From the sequence record PZ445416.1: a DNA stretch of 50,192 nucleotides; one strand, written 5' to 3'. This stretch comes from a phage. A program made the translations under genes and the position numbers. The notes beneath the pieces are model-generated. The model did no database searches, was not told where the DNA came from, and saw only the letters and a list, made by a program, of their open reading frames with translations. This document shows positions 3,676 through 47,122 of this stretch, piece after piece (within the stretch, counting starts at the first letter, position 1; every line of letters begins with the position of its first letter).

Positions 3676-4788
3676 ATGAAGGCAAAGCAAAGATTCGATT
3701 CAGTAAAAATCAAGGCTCACTTTGATGATAACGGTTTTTTAGTTGACCGCCCAATCGTGGCGCGAATCGGCGCTCAGGTTTACAAAACGCCGCACGGCGA
3801 TCGAGTTGAGTTCCGTCCGGCATCCGAAGTTTTCAAGCAAGATTCCTTGCAAAGTTTTGCAGGCAAGCCGATCACAGTCGGTCACGTAACGGTGACACCC
3901 CAAAATGCTAAGGACGTTGTTGTCGGATCGTGTGCTGGCGCTGGTATTGCTTCAGGGGTTGGCGTTGAAGTTCCTTTGAGTATTTACAGCGACTACGCGA
4001 TCAGCAAAGCTAAAGCGAAGGAGGCCGGGGAATTATCTGTAGGGTATACGTCGGTAGATATTGATAAGCCAGGCTGGGGTTCAAATGAGACTGGAGAATA
4101 TATCTTCGAAGAGGATATGAAACAGGACGAAGCGCCGCCTGAAGGTTGGGTGAAATTCGACGCGGTACAGACTAATATCAAGGTCAACCATATTGCCCTA
4201 GTTTTTAAAGGTCGTGCGGGAATTGCTAAATTAAATCTTGATGCCGAACAGGAGTTCCCGTATGATAATAACGTTCAATTAACTAACGAGGACAAGCAAA
4301 TGAAAAAAATTAAGATCGACTCAGTTGATGTGGAAGTAACCGAAGACGTTGCGAACCATATCGAAAAATTAACCGCGCAGATTGCCACCATTCAGGGGAA
4401 AGCTGATGGCTTCGAAGCTGAGCGCGATGCGCTGAAGGTTAAGGTTGACTCTCTGCCGGAACTTGTGAAGGCCGAGGTAGAGAAGCAAAAAGCCGATGCC
4501 GCCGCACGCGCAGAAGTTACCGCAGTAGCAGAAACCGCAGGCGTCAAACATGATGGTCTTGATATCAAAGACGTCAAGATTGCCGTAGTTAAAGCCATGC
4601 TTGATAAAGATGTTAGTGAAAAATCAGACGCATATATCGACGCTATGTTTGATGTTGCTAAAGATTCTGATATCATGGCTATTCAGCGTAAAGCAGTAAA
4701 AGGCGACTCTATCGAAGGCGGTAAGCCGGAAGAGAAAAACGACGCCGCGCCTGTTACGCCAAATTCACGTTTAAGCAAAGTAATGTAA
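3676..4788 (+). CDS. putative scaffolding / prohead protein
   Basis: Start at MKAKQRF after GGAG; C-terminal half is Lys/Glu/Ala-rich and coiled-coil-like (KAEVEKQKADAAARAEVTAVAE); position before capsid genes. Confidence 0.55.
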   Translation: MKAKQRFDSVKIKAHFDDNGFLVDRPIVARIGAQVYKTPHGDRVEFRPASEVFKQDSLQSFAGKPITVGHVTVTPQNAKDVVVGSCAGAGIASGVGVEVPLSIYSDYAISKAKAKEAGELSVGYTSVDIDKPGWGSNETGEYIFEEDMKQDEAPPEGWVKFDAVQTNIKVNHIALVFKGRAGIAKLNLDAEQEFPYDNNVQLTNEDKQMKKIKIDSVDVEVTEDVANHIEKLTAQIATIQGKADGFEAERDALKVKVDSLPELVKAEVEKQKADAAARAEVTAVAETAGVKHDGLDIKDVKIAVVKAMLDKDVSEKSDAYIDAMFDVAKDSDIMAIQRKAVKGDSIEGGKPEEKNDAAPVTPNSRLSKVM

Positions 4789-32754: not shown

Positions 32755-32931
32755 ATGAAACTAGTTAAGTGCATCCGAAATGACTCCAAAACACTTCCAT
32801 TCCGCGTAAATCAGATCTATAGTGTTGGTTATGATTTCGGTGGGGGATTATTTGAGATTCACGATGGTCGAGGTTCAGCAATCCAGGCTCCTCTGAACGG
32901 CAGCTATCTGGAATTTATTGCGATAGATTAA
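32755..32931 (+). CDS. small hypothetical protein (58 aa)
   Basis: ORF MKLVKCIRND..., absent from the supplied track; sits at the canonical distance downstream of Box-A cassette 32683-32725 with RBS AAAGAGGA. Confidence 0.4.
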   Translation: MKLVKCIRNDSKTLPFRVNQIYSVGYDFGGGLFEIHDGRGSAIQAPLNGSYLEFIAID

Positions 32932-36628: not shown

Positions 36629-37045
36629 TTATAAGTATTTGGCCTCAAAGGTTGTGCCGTCTGCGATACTAAAACCAACCTCTTCGCGAAATAAGGTCCA
36701 GCGACAACCATCTTCATCAAAGATGTAACCAGCTACGCCACCGAGAGCGCGACCGCTTTCAACCTGGTAACGCTTGCCAACTTTGAATGATTTTTTCATT
36801 GGGTTGCGATGGTCAAGCCCGGTGCACTTGAGCGTCTTTGTTTTCAACTCAGTGAACTTCGCGAAGAAGATTTCATCAGATCCGTGAATCTGTAATTCAT
36901 CATGCTTTTCAAGTTTTAAATACTTCCCGCATTTTAATTTTACTTCGCGAGTGCCATCATAGCGCTCACGACCTTTGTATAGGTTGTTTACTTCAAATCC
37001 TGTGATTTTATCTGCGTGAGTGCATTTCAGTTTGATGGATTTCAT
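36629..37045 (-). CDS. hypothetical protein
   Basis: 138 aa, RBS CAGGAG, downstream of Box-A cassette 37082-37124. Confidence 0.5.
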   Translation of the reverse strand: MKSIKLKCTHADKITGFEVNNLYKGRERYDGTREVKLKCGKYLKLEKHDELQIHGSDEIFFAKFTELKTKTLKCTGLDHRNPMKKSFKVGKRYQVESGRALGGVAGYIFDEDGCRWTLFREEVGFSIADGTTFEAKYL

Positions 37046-43707: not shown

Positions 43708-44214
43708 ATGTTAAAATTAGAATACGTAAAATTCCCGATTAAATTTATCAGCCTGGGTTGCGGTGAAATTACACTCACCAGTGAAGATAAAGGCAAGTGG
43801 GCCACTGATGAGGTGTCTCAGCTTAAGTTGGATTGGTTTATCAATCGGCACAATGAAGTAAATCCTGAAAACTCAGCCAAGAAGGATTACCATTACATTA
43901 TTAGTGGTAGTCAGGATGCGTACGGAAAGTATGATGGTTGGAAAACTGATCGATCCATCTTCCACCCCGCAAAGCCAGAAATTAAACCGATGTTACAATG
44001 CACTCAGATCGAGAACATGCCATTGAGCGCTACGCTAAAGGGCGTCCAACTTGATAGCGAATCCTGGACCGAGATTACCGCCACACCTAAAACTATTGAG
44101 GTGCATGATGATGTAGTGATTCTCCTATTGCATTACGGCAGCTTTAAGCACAAAACGGTATCAGGTGAAATAAGCATTAAGCGCGGAACACTTGTACGCT
44201 ATGAGGTGAAATAA
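43708..44214 (+). CDS. hypothetical protein
   Basis: 168 aa; RBS AAGAGGAAAG. Confidence 0.5.
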   Translation: MLKLEYVKFPIKFISLGCGEITLTSEDKGKWATDEVSQLKLDWFINRHNEVNPENSAKKDYHYIISGSQDAYGKYDGWKTDRSIFHPAKPEIKPMLQCTQIENMPLSATLKGVQLDSESWTEITATPKTIEVHDDVVILLLHYGSFKHKTVSGEISIKRGTLVRYEVK

Positions 44215-44363
44215 TGGCGGCGTGGATTTTGATTATCTTGATGAGTACCGGGCCGGATCACGTATACATGGAAAGTCAGCAATCATGCAACAAGGCTCGG
44301 GAAGTAATTGCAGAGAGCAAGCCGTTCGGATACGAAGTAAAAACGATGTGCGTTAAACGATAG
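44214..44363 (+). CDS. small hypothetical protein (49 aa)
   Basis: ATG overlaps upstream TAA; hydrophobic N-terminus (AAWILIILMS); stop TAG is the first triplet of Box A at 44361; absent from the track. Confidence 0.35.
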   Translation: MAAWILIILMSTGPDHVYMESQQSCNKAREVIAESKPFGYEVKTMCVKR

Positions 44364-44403
44364 CACGAATTGCTAAACCTTCCGCAAGGCCATTTGATAT
44401 AGT
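44361..44403 (+). promoter_or_regulatory. Box-A cassette
   Basis: TAGCACGAATTGCTA, 22 bp with IR AAGGCCA/TGGCCTT, TGaTATAGT. Confidence 0.6.
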
Positions 44404-44443
44404 GGCCTTATTGAAGCAAGGCAACCAATCAGAGGAATCAGCT

Positions 44444-44650
44444 ATGGCTACACGACTAACTCAGTGGCAGATTTACGACAAGGCCTCACACCTTCGTGAA
44501 TCGCTTCGCGGACTGGCACCGAACGACCGCATGGAGATTATCGGGCACGCATTGCACGAACTCACGTCTCAGGACGTAATCTATCACTCATGCGGCAATA
44601 AATTCTGGAACGTGACATTCGAGGTAAAGAAAGATGAGCAAAACTCATAA
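44444..44650 (+). CDS. hypothetical protein
   Basis: Start moved to MATRLTQ after CCAATCAGAGGA. Confidence 0.5.
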   Translation: MATRLTQWQIYDKASHLRESLRGLAPNDRMEIIGHALHELTSQDVIYHSCGNKFWNVTFEVKKDEQNS

Positions 44651-44921
44651 GTTAAAAATCTCCCCGGTACATTTCATTGGTGTAATGAACGGAACCAAAA
44701 CGGCAGAGTTCCGCGTCAATGACCGCAACTTCCAGGTTGGTGATATCCTTGAGCTACGCGAGTTCGATCGTGACGAGCTTACCGGGTGGGAAGTTCACGC
44801 CAGGGTGTCCGATGTTACAGATGTGACGCCATACATCAATCGCGGTTATGACGAGCAAGAATGCGACTTCACGCAGTACGTGATGTTATCAATCAAGCCC
44901 TACAGGAAGATTAGACCATGA
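44634..44921 (+). CDS. ASCH / DUF3850-like protein (PUA-like fold)
   Basis: HKLKISPVHFIGVMNGTKTAEFRVNDRNFQVGDILELRE resembles the DUF3850/ASCH signature as I remember it. Confidence 0.55.
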   Translation: MSKTHKLKISPVHFIGVMNGTKTAEFRVNDRNFQVGDILELREFDRDELTGWEVHARVSDVTDVTPYINRGYDEQECDFTQYVMLSIKPYRKIRP

Positions 44922-45556
44922 AATTTGAGTGTGTATCGAGTAGCGGATCTGGTTTTAAGTGGGGAAAAACTTACAAAGGTGTTCGCGTAAATGATGACAG
45001 CTTCATCATTACTGATGAGAACGGTTGCAACGTGAACGTTGTACGGCGTCACGAATATCAGGAAATTTTCCTGCCTTATGGCGGTAGCTCAAAATATATC
45101 TTCCATCGAATCGTGGATGGTGTTAAATTTAACGACGTAATCGAAGCAATCAACCAACTGCATAATAAAGAGGTAAAATTTATGAAATTCGAATGTATCA
45201 GCGATAACACCAAAAAATTTACTGTTGGAAAAATCTATGACGTTCCATCTGAGCACGCTAAGCACACGACTGTAATTACCGATGACACGGGCCATAACCG
45301 CATCGCAACGATCACTCACAATGGTGAGGGTCTTCGTTGGAACAGTGGCGGCACTAAGTTCGCAACTTTCGGTAAGAAGAGTAAGCGCACTTTCTGCGTC
45401 AACGACAAGATCAATACCAGCAAGATTAGCAACGTCAAGCCTATTAATGTTGACCGCAAGCCAGCGATGAAGTTTGAAGAGAAAGCGGATTTATCCATCC
45501 TGGCTGTGGCGCTTGTTCTCCTGGTGGCTTCGATTTCGCTGATGTTCATCATGTAA
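44918..45556 (+). CDS. membrane-anchored protein with internal tandem repeat
   Basis: Residues 1-90 and 91-180 both begin MKFEC(V/I)S... and share G(K)xYxxV; C-terminal TM helix ILAVALVLLVASISLMFIM. Confidence 0.55.
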   Translation: MKFECVSSSGSGFKWGKTYKGVRVNDDSFIITDENGCNVNVVRRHEYQEIFLPYGGSSKYIFHRIVDGVKFNDVIEAINQLHNKEVKFMKFECISDNTKKFTVGKIYDVPSEHAKHTTVITDDTGHNRIATITHNGEGLRWNSGGTKFATFGKKSKRTFCVNDKINTSKISNVKPINVDRKPAMKFEEKADLSILAVALVLLVASISLMFIM

Positions 45557-45609
45557 TTTCAATTGGGAATCGGCTCTGAACGGTTCCCCTTTCTTTTGGA
45601 GAAAACACT

Positions 45610-45720
45610 ATGCCAGACTTTTCTAACTGGAATAACGAGCCACCATCATTTCAGGATTTGCTATTCTGCCTCCTGGTCCTGACATTATCTCTTAAGGGTG
45701 TTTTATGGCTACTATCATGA
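45610..45720 (+). CDS. possible small hydrophobic peptide (36 aa)
   Basis: ORF MPDFSNWNNEPPSFQDLLFCLLVLTLSLKGVLWLLS with upstream GGAG; overlaps the start of 45705-45923 in another frame, so only one may be real. Confidence 0.25.
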   Translation: MPDFSNWNNEPPSFQDLLFCLLVLTLSLKGVLWLLS

Positions 45721-45923
45721 CAGCAGAAGATGCAGCGCGTGACGCAGTGGAAGGAATGCGCCCAAATACCTCCAGAATCGCACACTACTACAAATCTGAG
45801 GTGTCGGCAGTGCAATTGGTCCACGAAATTTTAATGCTACCACAAGTCGATTCAGCGCGCGTGGTGACGTGCTTAAAAAATTATTTTTGCATCACTATTA
45901 AAACGAATAGCACGAATTGCTAA
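45705..45923 (+). CDS. hypothetical protein
   Basis: 72 aa; stop TAA lies inside Box A at 45908-45922. Confidence 0.35.
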   Translation: MATIMTAEDAARDAVEGMRPNTSRIAHYYKSEVSAVQLVHEILMLPQVDSARVVTCLKNYFCITIKTNSTNC

Positions 45924-46470: not shown

Positions 46471-46510
46471 GCCCTTCGTTGAGTTAAGCAACCAATCAGA
46501 GGAATAAATC

Positions 46511-47122
46511 ATGGATAAAATTACCATTTGGGGACAGACAATCAACCTGTTTCTCGGCACGCGCCGCGTAGCAATCTTTGACTTTGATGGAACACTTAGC
46601 GATGGATCTGGTCGACTTCACCTGCTACCTACAAAGGATTTGCAATTAACTGAAAGCTGGTCCGAGTTTAACCGCGCGGCAATATTTGATAACCCAATCA
46701 AGAGTACGATTGAAGTGATGAACTCTATGTTTGCCGCTGGGTATCATGTGATCATTTTAACCGGGCGAAGTGATGAGGTGCGTTACGCATCTGAGTTATG
46801 GCTTAAGCATCACGGCGCTCGATATGATTACTTAGTCATGCGACCGCATACCGACAACCGCAAAGACACGGTAATGAAAGAAGAGGCAGTGCGCGCGATC
46901 GGCATTGAGAACATTCTGGCGGCCTGGGATGACTCACCGCAAATTATTCCATTATTCCGCTCGCTTGGAATAACAACTTACGCTGTAGTTGACTATGGCG
47001 ATAACGTTCACAATCATTTAAAATCTCACGGGGTAGATGAGGTTTGCAATCATGAACCATCTGAGCCGCTACCGCCATTTGGTGAGAAAATTTGCATTAA
47101 GTGCAAGGAGTTATTGAAGTGA
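46511..47122 (+). CDS. HAD-family phosphatase (polynucleotide 3'-phosphatase-like)
   Basis: N-terminal DxDGT motif (IFDFDGTL) typical of HAD phosphatases such as the T4 Pnkp phosphatase domain; C-terminal CxxC pair. Confidence 0.65.
   Translation: MDKITIWGQTINLFLGTRRVAIFDFDGTLSDGSGRLHLLPTKDLQLTESWSEFNRAAIFDNPIKSTIEVMNSMFAAGYHVIILTGRSDEVRYASELWLKHHGARYDYLVMRPHTDNRKDTVMKEEAVRAIGIENILAAWDDSPQIIPLFRSLGITTYAVVDYGDNVHNHLKSHGVDEVCNHEPSEPLPPFGEKICIKCKELLK

Follow-up and report, generated by a model that had tools for sequence, protein, structure and literature searches.

The S107/S105 gene of phage lambda is a dual-start gene that gives rise to nested isoforms, and protein p16.7 of phage phi29 offers a functional comparison for proteins that tether nucleic acid to the membrane. 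The family DUF7244 belongs to the SH3 clan (PMC13164509, the KanT1 paper), and a cell-wall role was hypothesised for the stand-alone DUF7244 gene of the T1-like lysis cassette (PMC13164509). Here, the gene bas13_0070 was analyzed within a stretch of 50,192 nt of phage DNA (sequence record PZ445416.1; this whole stretch is referred to as the window) and compared with these systems and with its relatives in T1-like phages. The deduced protein is predicted to consist of two homologous small beta-barrels, a basic linker and a C-terminal membrane helix, and the second barrel together with linker and helix appears to be the ancestral unit, to which another barrel was added in one Tunavirus subclade. 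This architecture and evolutionary history are regarded as highly probable.

The open reading frame (ORF) called by the first-pass annotation at 44918-45556 is genuine, and the deduced protein matches 'hypothetical protein bas13_0070 [Escherichia phage LeonhardEuler]' (P0001) with 100% identity. LeonhardEuler, listed as Bas13 in the BASEL collection, is a T1-like phage of the genus Tunavirus (Drexlerviridae); the window corresponds essentially to its genome, and the 2.5 kb around the gene share 88-95% identity with many Tunavirus genomes. The protein matches PHROG 10580 over its full length (E 6.2e-131, residues 1-212 versus profile positions 1-212 of 212) and is basic overall, with an isoelectric point (pI) of 9.3 for the entire protein, 9.25 for the second barrel (D2) and 9.9 for the linker. 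The gene and its parts were delimited by means of AlphaFold2 (AF2) with its predicted local distance difference test (pLDDT), by hhalign and by the ratio of non-synonymous to synonymous substitution rates (dN/dS):

44918-45556, + strand: complete ORF bas13_0070 with ATG start, 212 amino acids (aa) plus stop (ORF list, translation).
44918-45115, + strand: module 1 beta-barrel (D1), aa 1-66, six predicted strands (AF2 pLDDT 83-92; hhalign; dN/dS).
45116-45181, + strand: C-terminal helix of module 1 (aa 71-81) and inter-module junction (AF2; DNA almost invariant among relatives).
45182-45382, + strand: module 2 beta-barrel (D2), aa 89-155, the conserved and apparently ancestral module (AF2 pLDDT 81-93; hhalign; dN/dS).
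45383-45487, + strand: basic, variable, low-confidence linker, aa 156-190 (pLDDT 31-41; pI 9.9; 9 K/R versus 4 D/E).
45488-45553, + strand: C-terminal transmembrane helix, predicted tail anchor, aa 191-212 (Kyte-Doolittle 2.4; AF2 helix 186-211).

Both halves carry the GKxY core that had been noted initially (G16-K17-x-Y19 and G104-K105-x-Y107), and each of them opens with the motif MKFEC. The second MKFEC is located at residue 89, not at residue 91 as annotated, and the modules comprise residues 1-88 (barrel 1-66 plus helix 71-81) and 89-155. The presumed second copy of 90 residues extending to residue 180 had to be abandoned, since module 2 is followed by the linker. A Smith-Waterman alignment of module 1 with module 2 scored 62 versus 25.7 +/- 4.4 in 5000 shuffles (z 8.2, 0/5000), and BLASTP of one half versus the other yielded 31% identity over 58 residues (E 1e-5). 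Nearly all of the pairwise signal is supplied by the first seven residues, without which z dropped to 1.4 and 546 of the 5000 shuffles reached the score. The comparison of the two family alignments by hhalign, which is more decisive for module homology than a pairwise alignment, paired columns 1-56 of the module-1 family with columns 1-57 of the module-2 family (probability 92.8%, E 4e-7). As single-sequence AF2 was unusable except for the membrane helix (pLDDT 39.6), a model based on a 22-sequence alignment was used instead, with a mean pLDDT of 77.6, values of 81-93 in the barrels, disorder at 157-189 and a helix at 186-211. The strands of module 1 (2-8, 18-25, 28-32, 38-45, 50-53, 60-66) are in register with those of module 2 (0-8, 18-22, 29-33, 39-45, 50-56 and 59-65, after subtraction of 88). 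The repeat is confirmed, and the two modules are homologous, each with six predicted strands.

The 'two copies' of the first-pass annotation are best described as two members of one domain family with about 31% identity, and not as products of a recent duplication. A recent duplication at the DNA level was rejected on account of the missing blastn similarity between the two halves. Since, additionally, the codons of the two MKFEC N-termini differ at synonymous sites, the repeat represents an old duplication or fusion, with the constraint acting on the protein sequence. The similarity of module 1 to module 2 does not exceed its similarity to the repeats of P0050, an unrelated member of the superfamily. 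A third occurrence, MKFE(E) at residue 184, was rejected as a module or start, as it lacks a Shine-Dalgarno (SD) sequence (+0.1 kcal/mol) and the methionine is not conserved in relatives.

An external profile that was built solely from unrelated DUF6501-type proteins matched both modules, with hhalign probabilities of 95.2% for module 1 (E 2.9e-8) and 97.1% for module 2 (E 7.1e-11). When 1.84 billion representative proteins were scanned exhaustively by HMMER, with the module-2 profile only, just seven matches at E <= 1e-3 resulted. One was the family itself, four were proteins of 104-145 aa with a single module, and two were soluble repeat proteins, in which the module of about 55 residues is repeated four times (P0050) or six to seven times (P0049). 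With gathering cut-offs of 23.8 bits for DUF6501 (PF20111) and 27 bits for DUF7244 (PF23896, SH3 clan), both repeat proteins qualified as DUF6501 (P0049 with 73 bits, P0050 with 41 bits); P0049 was also above the cut-off for DUF7244, and P0050 was just under it (26.1 bits). Precomputed PF20111 matches were available for P0051, P0053, P0054 and P0057, and a word-indexed profile search added stand-alone DUF6501 proteins of 62-77 aa, in all of which a C-terminal helix comes after the barrel. In a joint alignment of 18 rows, Cys5, Gly16, Tyr19 and Gly37 were invariant or nearly so, and the modules have the signature M-K-[VFT]-[EK]-C ... G-K-x-Y ... D-[DE]-x-G in common with DUF6501 and DUF7244. 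The GKxY motif is accordingly the hallmark of the wider domain family.

No Pfam or NCBIfam family was matched by bas13_0070 above cut-off. The full protein gave no match to DUF6501, module 2 alone scored 13.4 bits (E 0.074) and module 1 was not matched; DUF7244 was hit with 17.6 bits (E 0.0041) over residues 12-37 only, and one of eight module-1 sequences gave any DUF7244 match in the Pfam scan. Since these values are below both Pfam cut-offs, bas13_0070 is classified as a remote relative of DUF6501/DUF7244 and not as a member of either family. A Foldseek search of BFVD with the whole two-domain model as query detected many phage proteins of 56-80 aa with target-normalised template modelling scores (TM-scores) of 0.7-0.84; one of them carries a DUF7244 annotation (target TM-score 0.73, E 0.028). 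The full model matched nothing in the PDB below E 0.01, where only weak SH3-containing entries appeared, and profile searches of PDB sequences returned noise only, with a de novo designed SH3-like barrel as best hit (E 0.33).

Proteins of this superfamily also occur elsewhere in the window:

32755-32931, + strand: stand-alone 58-aa DUF7244 gene (Pfam, 94 bits), directly preceding the genes for holin, endolysin and spanin.

The 138-aa ORF 36629-37045 on the - strand contains two 'LKC ... (G)KxY' stretches that look like a tandem pair (Pfam DUF7244, E 0.022); its candidacy as a two-module paralogue is unsupported, given an hhalign probability of 2.5%. Furthermore, a metagenomic contig of 45,592 bp carries three paralogous stand-alone DUF6501-type genes of 67-70 aa (P0053, P0055 and P0056), so this small barrel family expands within genomes besides expanding within proteins.

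The single C-terminal transmembrane helix of the first-pass annotation was recovered by hydropathy (Kyte-Doolittle 2.4 also for residues 191-209) and by the AF2 model. It is located at the extreme C-terminus with no residues after it, it is preceded by a positively charged flank, and the protein has no N-terminal signal peptide, no other hydrophobic segment and a hydrophilic N-terminus, which is the sequence layout of a tail-anchored protein. T1 ST68, the IME347 protein and P0045-P0048 likewise end in a hydrophobic helix, which is flanked by K/R-rich sequence on its N-terminal side and followed by no more than 0-5 residues. The positive-inside rule and the layout of tail-anchored proteins served to deduce the topology. 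Since there is no signal peptide, nothing follows the helix and its N-terminal flank is rich in K/R, the protein is predicted to be tail-anchored in the inner membrane with the N-terminus inside, both barrels residing in the cytoplasm on a basic linker of about 35 residues. Given the predicted cytoplasmic location of the barrels, the envelope target considered by the first-pass annotation is unlikely, as is a periplasmic one, and it is more plausible that the target is met at the membrane from the cytoplasmic side.

A second potential translation start is embedded in the gene:

45167-45184, + strand: internal initiation region, consisting of AAAGAGGT, a spacer of 7-8 nt and the in-frame ATG of Met89 at 45182 (anti-SD pairing).

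The anti-SD energy amounts to -7.1 kcal/mol for the ATG of Met89, compared with -4.3 kcal/mol for the annotated start at 44918 and -5.3 to -7.2 kcal/mol for neighbouring genes. The sequence AAAGAGGT is unchanged in 11 of 12 relatives, and GAGGTAAAATTTATG is the same initiation region as that of the stand-alone 124-aa T1 gene ST68. As in dual-start genes, a second start codon thus lies in frame within the gene, behind a ribosome-binding site that looks functional. Substitution rates, including the synonymous rate (dS), were computed over twelve collinear Tunavirus genes:

aa 1-66, D1 barrel: dN/dS 0.14, dS 0.53.
aa 67-88, junction codons: dN/dS 0.43, dS 0.058.
aa 89-155, D2 barrel: dN/dS 0.05, dS about 0.5.
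aa 156-190, linker: dN/dS 0.35, dS about 0.5.
aa 191-212, membrane helix: dN/dS 0.25, dS about 0.5.

Just upstream of Met89, dS is therefore about 9-fold lower than in the rest of the gene, and the nucleotide diversity of 0.02 at 45142-45201 equals the low values at true gene boundaries nearby. This junction pattern suggests that the RNA or DNA sequence as such is constrained, and it would fit a retained internal initiation region. The strong internal SD along with the drop in dS makes a short D2-membrane-helix isoform of 124 aa plausible, and we lean slightly towards its existence. Only the 124-aa frame is intact in T1 and in the frameshift variants L025 and L026. Both barrels are under purifying selection and thus functional, which argues for the maintenance of the long form as well; bas13_0070 probably yields a long form comprising D1, D2 and the membrane helix (23.9 kDa) and a short form comprising D2 and the membrane helix (13.8 kDa).

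Comparison with other T1-like phages suggests how the two-barrel form arose. Only a single-module form was found in T1, IME347 and P0045-P0048, with module 2 type present and module 1 absent. T1 ST68 (YP_003876, 124 aa) is an orthologue of module 2, linker and anchor with about 77% identity, and further single-module relatives occur in IME347, SRT8, IME-JL8 and metagenomic T1-like phages (PHROG 10580), the distant ones with 26-47% identity. P0046 and P0047 are syntenic in other T1-like genomes: a 72-aa gene and a gene of about 146 aa are located downstream of both, followed at the P0046 locus by terS and at the P0047 locus by a gene for a polynucleotide kinase (PNK)-like HAD phosphatase, an annotation found at this locus alone; a DUF3850 gene lies upstream at the P0047 locus only. 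Because the distant single-module homologues share layout and position, one barrel with basic linker and tail anchor, that is module 2, is deduced to be the conserved, ancestral and autonomous unit, and the second barrel seems to be confined to a Tunavirus subclade. A tblastn search with the IME347 homologue detected no additional phage relatives.

The single-module state of T1 itself is secondary and due to a deletion, in contrast to the more distant genera, for which a single module appears to be the ancestral condition. By blastn, positions 1106-1533 of the T1 locus correspond to 44001-44428 of the window and positions 1537-2167 to 45170-45800 (junction at L002 1533-1537), which delimits the following segment:

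44429-45169, strand not assigned: 741-bp segment absent from T1, comprising a 68-aa gene, the ASCH gene and module 1 (blastn of T1 versus the window).

Both edges of this in-frame deletion are located in AGAGG/GAGG ribosome-binding sites, that of the 68-aa gene and that of module 2, and three coding units were removed as if they were three cistrons. A dedicated search for a free-standing module-1 gene gave the candidates P0060, P0061 and P0062 and resulted in no such gene: P0060 was rejected as a low-coverage contig-end artefact, P0061 as a homopolymer frameshift of 1 nt and P0062 as a fragment from the fragmented vB_SsoS_008 locus. In the favoured scenario, module 1, a barrel with a C-terminal helix, was fused in frame upstream of module 2 in one Tunavirus subclade, and module 2 retained its own ribosome-binding site and ATG inside the fused ORF. 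Its source would be either an old tandem duplication or the capture of another member of the domain family; as module 1 is no nearer to module 2 than to the P0050 repeats and free-standing genes were not found, both origins agree with the data.

A tblastn search with bas13_0070 yielded only 67 phage records, all from Escherichia or Shigella phages, compared with 252 records that share DNA of the surrounding 2.5 kb. The homologue of ADB-2 (L023 1501-2140) is frameshifted according to its translation, that of vB_SsoS_008 (L003 1501-2112) is split into several short annotated ORFs, and in L025/L026 (1501-2138) the loss of 1 nt in an A-run truncates module 1 and leaves the 124-aa module-2 frame intact. 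From these frameshifts, the fragmentation, the loss of module 1 in T1 and the limited number of tblastn matches it is deduced that bas13_0070 is probably dispensable, at least in part.

With respect to function, the barrels would act as ligand-binding modules that capture a host or phage protein and keep this partner at the inner membrane on its cytoplasmic side. Module 1 would broaden the binding by a further specificity, and the role would be a non-essential one in host takeover or competition. Such a protein-capturing adaptor role is tentative and seems possible rather than probable, a protein partner being somewhat likelier than nucleic acid. It is conceivable but doubtful that bas13_0070 and its single-barrel orthologues form a previously undescribed class of tail-anchored SH3-like adaptors, conserved at one position in T1-like phages, in whose two-barrel version a selected internal start yields a long and a short membrane-bound isoform at a ratio that tunes the capture of a host factor at the inner membrane, for example a division, transport or defence protein. 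The overall explanation, as a blend of layers from architecture to role, is held with middling confidence.

Several points weigh against this explanation. Both modules fall short of the Pfam gathering scores for DUF6501 and DUF7244, and since Foldseek found no PDB match below E 0.01, the SH3-like assignment depends on indirect links. SH3-like barrels can bind nucleic acid or peptidoglycan as well, so that a protein ligand is a guess. Recent exchange of a boundary sequence by recombination could account for the low dS at the junction instead, and other conserved islands in the region include whole genes, for example the ASCH gene. Moreover, the inter-module frame is open in every intact relative, which implies selection for the long form, and the short form might be made in small amounts or not at all.

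Alternative explanations of the protein layout differ in how well they agree with these data. A repeat that is a chance resemblance confined to the MKFECxS heptapeptide would account for the loss of the Smith-Waterman signal upon removal of the first seven residues, yet it has to be reconciled with the profile-profile match over 56 columns, with six predicted strands in register, with two modules that both match an external profile and with N-terminal codons that differ synonymously and hence are not a recent DNA copy; this explanation has almost no credibility. Export of the barrels for SH3-type cell-wall binding in the periplasm, as proposed for the lysis-cassette DUF7244 protein, is suggested by the membership of DUF7244 in the SH3 clan, by its hypothesised cell-wall role (PMC13164509) and by the copy at 32755-32931. 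It is nonetheless highly improbable, considering the lack of a signal peptide, the hydrophilic N-terminus, the sole hydrophobic segment at the extreme C-terminus with positive charges on its N-terminal side, the implausible N-out export of 190 basic residues and the location of bas13_0070 outside the lysis cassette; the similarity to DUF7244 is also weak (17.6 versus 27 bits; hhalign probability 18% with the DUF7244 protein of the window). It would finally be conceivable that only the short product matters and that module 1 is a former separate cistron, fused by chance and being lost. The clean deletion in T1 from ribosome-binding site to ribosome-binding site, the 1-nt deletion in L025/L026 that spares the 124-aa frame, truncated forms that start inside module 1 (P0028, P0032 and P0036), an internal SD stronger than the first and an out-of-frame TAATAA directly before it all agree with this idea. 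Module 1 is nevertheless under purifying selection (dN/dS 0.14 at dS 0.53) and modelled with a pLDDT above 85, more than 30 sequence clusters, some of them only 55-70% identical, keep the fused frame open, and the sole candidate for a stand-alone module-1 gene is the contig-end artefact, making this alternative quite unlikely.

Two further alternatives concern the role of the protein. An inner-membrane exclusion of superinfecting related phages, or a block of their DNA entry, in which the protein would disturb their genome translocation machinery from the cytoplasmic face, could form a second layer behind the outer-membrane lipoprotein Cor, in which T1-like phages are known to invest for exclusion (PMC13164509). 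The protein is small, membrane-anchored, non-essential and lineage-restricted, its gene is located in the accessory gene arm, and linker and membrane helix evolve fast (dN/dS 0.25-0.35). These features have to be balanced against a D2 barrel under strong purifying selection (dN/dS 0.05), which is not an arms-race pattern, against a topology with almost nothing exposed to the periplasm to meet an entering tape-measure or ejection protein, and against Pfam, PHROGs and NCBIfam results without similarity to known exclusion proteins of the Cor/Llp, T4 Imm or HK97 gp15 type, so that exclusion is considered improbable. Similarly low credence is given to a membrane tether for nucleic acid, in which phage DNA or RNA would be bound by the basic barrels and linker, and complexes for replication or transcription would be fixed to the membrane. 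Basicity throughout the protein (pI 9.3; D2 9.25; linker 9.9) agrees with such a tether, small SH3, Sso7d and Tudor-like barrels are often nucleic-acid binders, the multi-repeat relative P0050 matches a PHROG annotated as 'DNA binding protein', and the adjoining translationally coupled gene encodes a predicted RNA-binding ASCH/DUF3850 protein. The PHROG annotations in the superfamily, however, disagree with each other, reading 'virion structural protein', 'glycosyltransferase' or 'DNA binding protein'; bas13_0070 revealed no motif for nucleic-acid binding, and a dispensable gene is hard to square with a core role in replication. Capture of a protein partner by cytoplasm-facing barrels is retained as the tentative preferred role.

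The gene bas13_0070 belongs to the small genes that make up the T1-type left arm before the terminase, and its immediate surroundings contain the following features:

44634-44921, + strand: gene for a 95-aa ASCH/DUF3850 protein, translationally coupled to module 1 (Pfam DUF3850, E 2.9e-15).
45565-45598, + strand: terminator-like hairpin with an 8-bp stem, then a T-rich run, 9 nt after the stop (fold -15.2 kcal/mol, z -1.9).
45610-45720, + strand: ORF for a 36-aa hydrophobic peptide, homologue of T1 ST67 with an equivalent in IME347 (anti-SD -6.4 kcal/mol).

The stop of the ASCH/DUF3850 gene overlaps the start ATG of bas13_0070 (ATGA), and a DUF3850 gene is also located upstream in IME347 and L007. 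The position homologous to the hairpin is annotated as a rho-independent terminator in T1. The 36-aa ORF overlaps the start of the 72-aa ST66 homologue (45705-45923), and the nucleotide diversity of this stretch is 0.01-0.05. In SH2 (vB_EcoS_SH2, L006 1001-1804), the stop of the bas13_0070 homologue is lost and the frame reads through the terminator region into an ST67-like peptide, the annotated product having 267 aa and two hydrophobic segments. A scan for sigma-70 promoters on the + strand directly upstream of bas13_0070 or of its likely operon revealed no convincing candidate. Early expression, as assumed by the first-pass annotation, is suggested by the left-arm position only; the BASEL papers, the KanT1 paper and a daunorubicin preprint contain no gene-specific or timing data on bas13_0070, and no transcript data were found.

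Additional sequence elements were observed in the left arm. The 15-mer ACCAATCAGAGGAAT is identical at 44424-44438 and 46491-46505, before the 68-aa gene (ATG at 44444) and the polynucleotide kinase gene (ATG at 46511), respectively, and (A)CCAA..AGAGGAA-like motifs precede other left-arm genes; motifs of this type could serve as substrates for boundary-to-boundary recombination. An intergenic island at 44358-44409 with a diversity of 0.03 contains the inverted repeat AAGGCCA (44387-44393) / TGGCCTT (44403-44409), and its first 20 nt (44358-44377) recur with 100% identity immediately before the single-module gene of IME347 (L004 1457-1476). This island may be a shared regulatory or recombination element. 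Upstream of single-module genes in other genera, the motif CATAAT/TATGAT with AGCCCCA(C/A) is located about 25-30 nt before the ATG (L004 at about 1494-1534, L007 and L008 at about 3961-4001); it resembles a -10 element and does not occur before bas13_0070. The corresponding upstream motif ATAGCCCCAC is not repeated in the window.

The predicted cytoplasm-facing, tail-anchored SH3-like barrels provide a concrete architecture for one gene of the T1-like phages, about half of whose genes are without assigned function, along with an ancestral core unit that is position-conserved in several T1-like phages of different genera. The locus is also a clear example of phage accessory proteins that grow or shrink by exchanges between ribosome-binding sites. 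What is new is the combination of a tandem with a tail-anchored architecture, the domain superfamily itself being already known; the result by itself overturns nothing and answers no long-standing question. Any partner found for bas13_0070 would give the first functional clue to the large uncharacterised DUF6501/DUF7244 family.

A comparison with the known systems separates shared from distinct features. T1 ST68 and its relatives occupy the same genome position as bas13_0070 and share the downstream terminator as well as the ribosome-binding site and ATG of module 2, but they contain one barrel instead of two. The DUF6501/DUF7244 proteins are small phage barrels that occur as stand-alone proteins of 56-80 aa or in tandem arrays, and bas13_0070 resembles them in its tandem arrangement and in the helix that follows the barrel of module 1, as it does in the stand-alone proteins. 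Its modules are longer, with about 66 residues, six strands and an extra hairpin, and none of the retrieved DUF6501/DUF7244 proteins has the C-terminal membrane helix. The DUF7244 gene at 32755-32931, a lysis-cassette 'SH3' gene of the KanT1 type, belongs to the same broad superfamily and phage family, but it is found at another locus, encodes no membrane anchor and reaches an hhalign probability of only 18% with the bas13_0070 modules; the cell-wall role proposed for its product does not carry over to a protein whose barrels are predicted to face the cytoplasm. Like the dual-start genes of the lambda S107/S105 type, bas13_0070 has an in-frame internal ATG behind a strong SD, and the annotation of T1 lists ST63/ST63A as a possible in-frame alternative product of another left-arm gene. 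In contrast to the lambda-type genes, the two starts of bas13_0070 are 88 codons and thereby a whole domain apart, and its second product is a predicted one.

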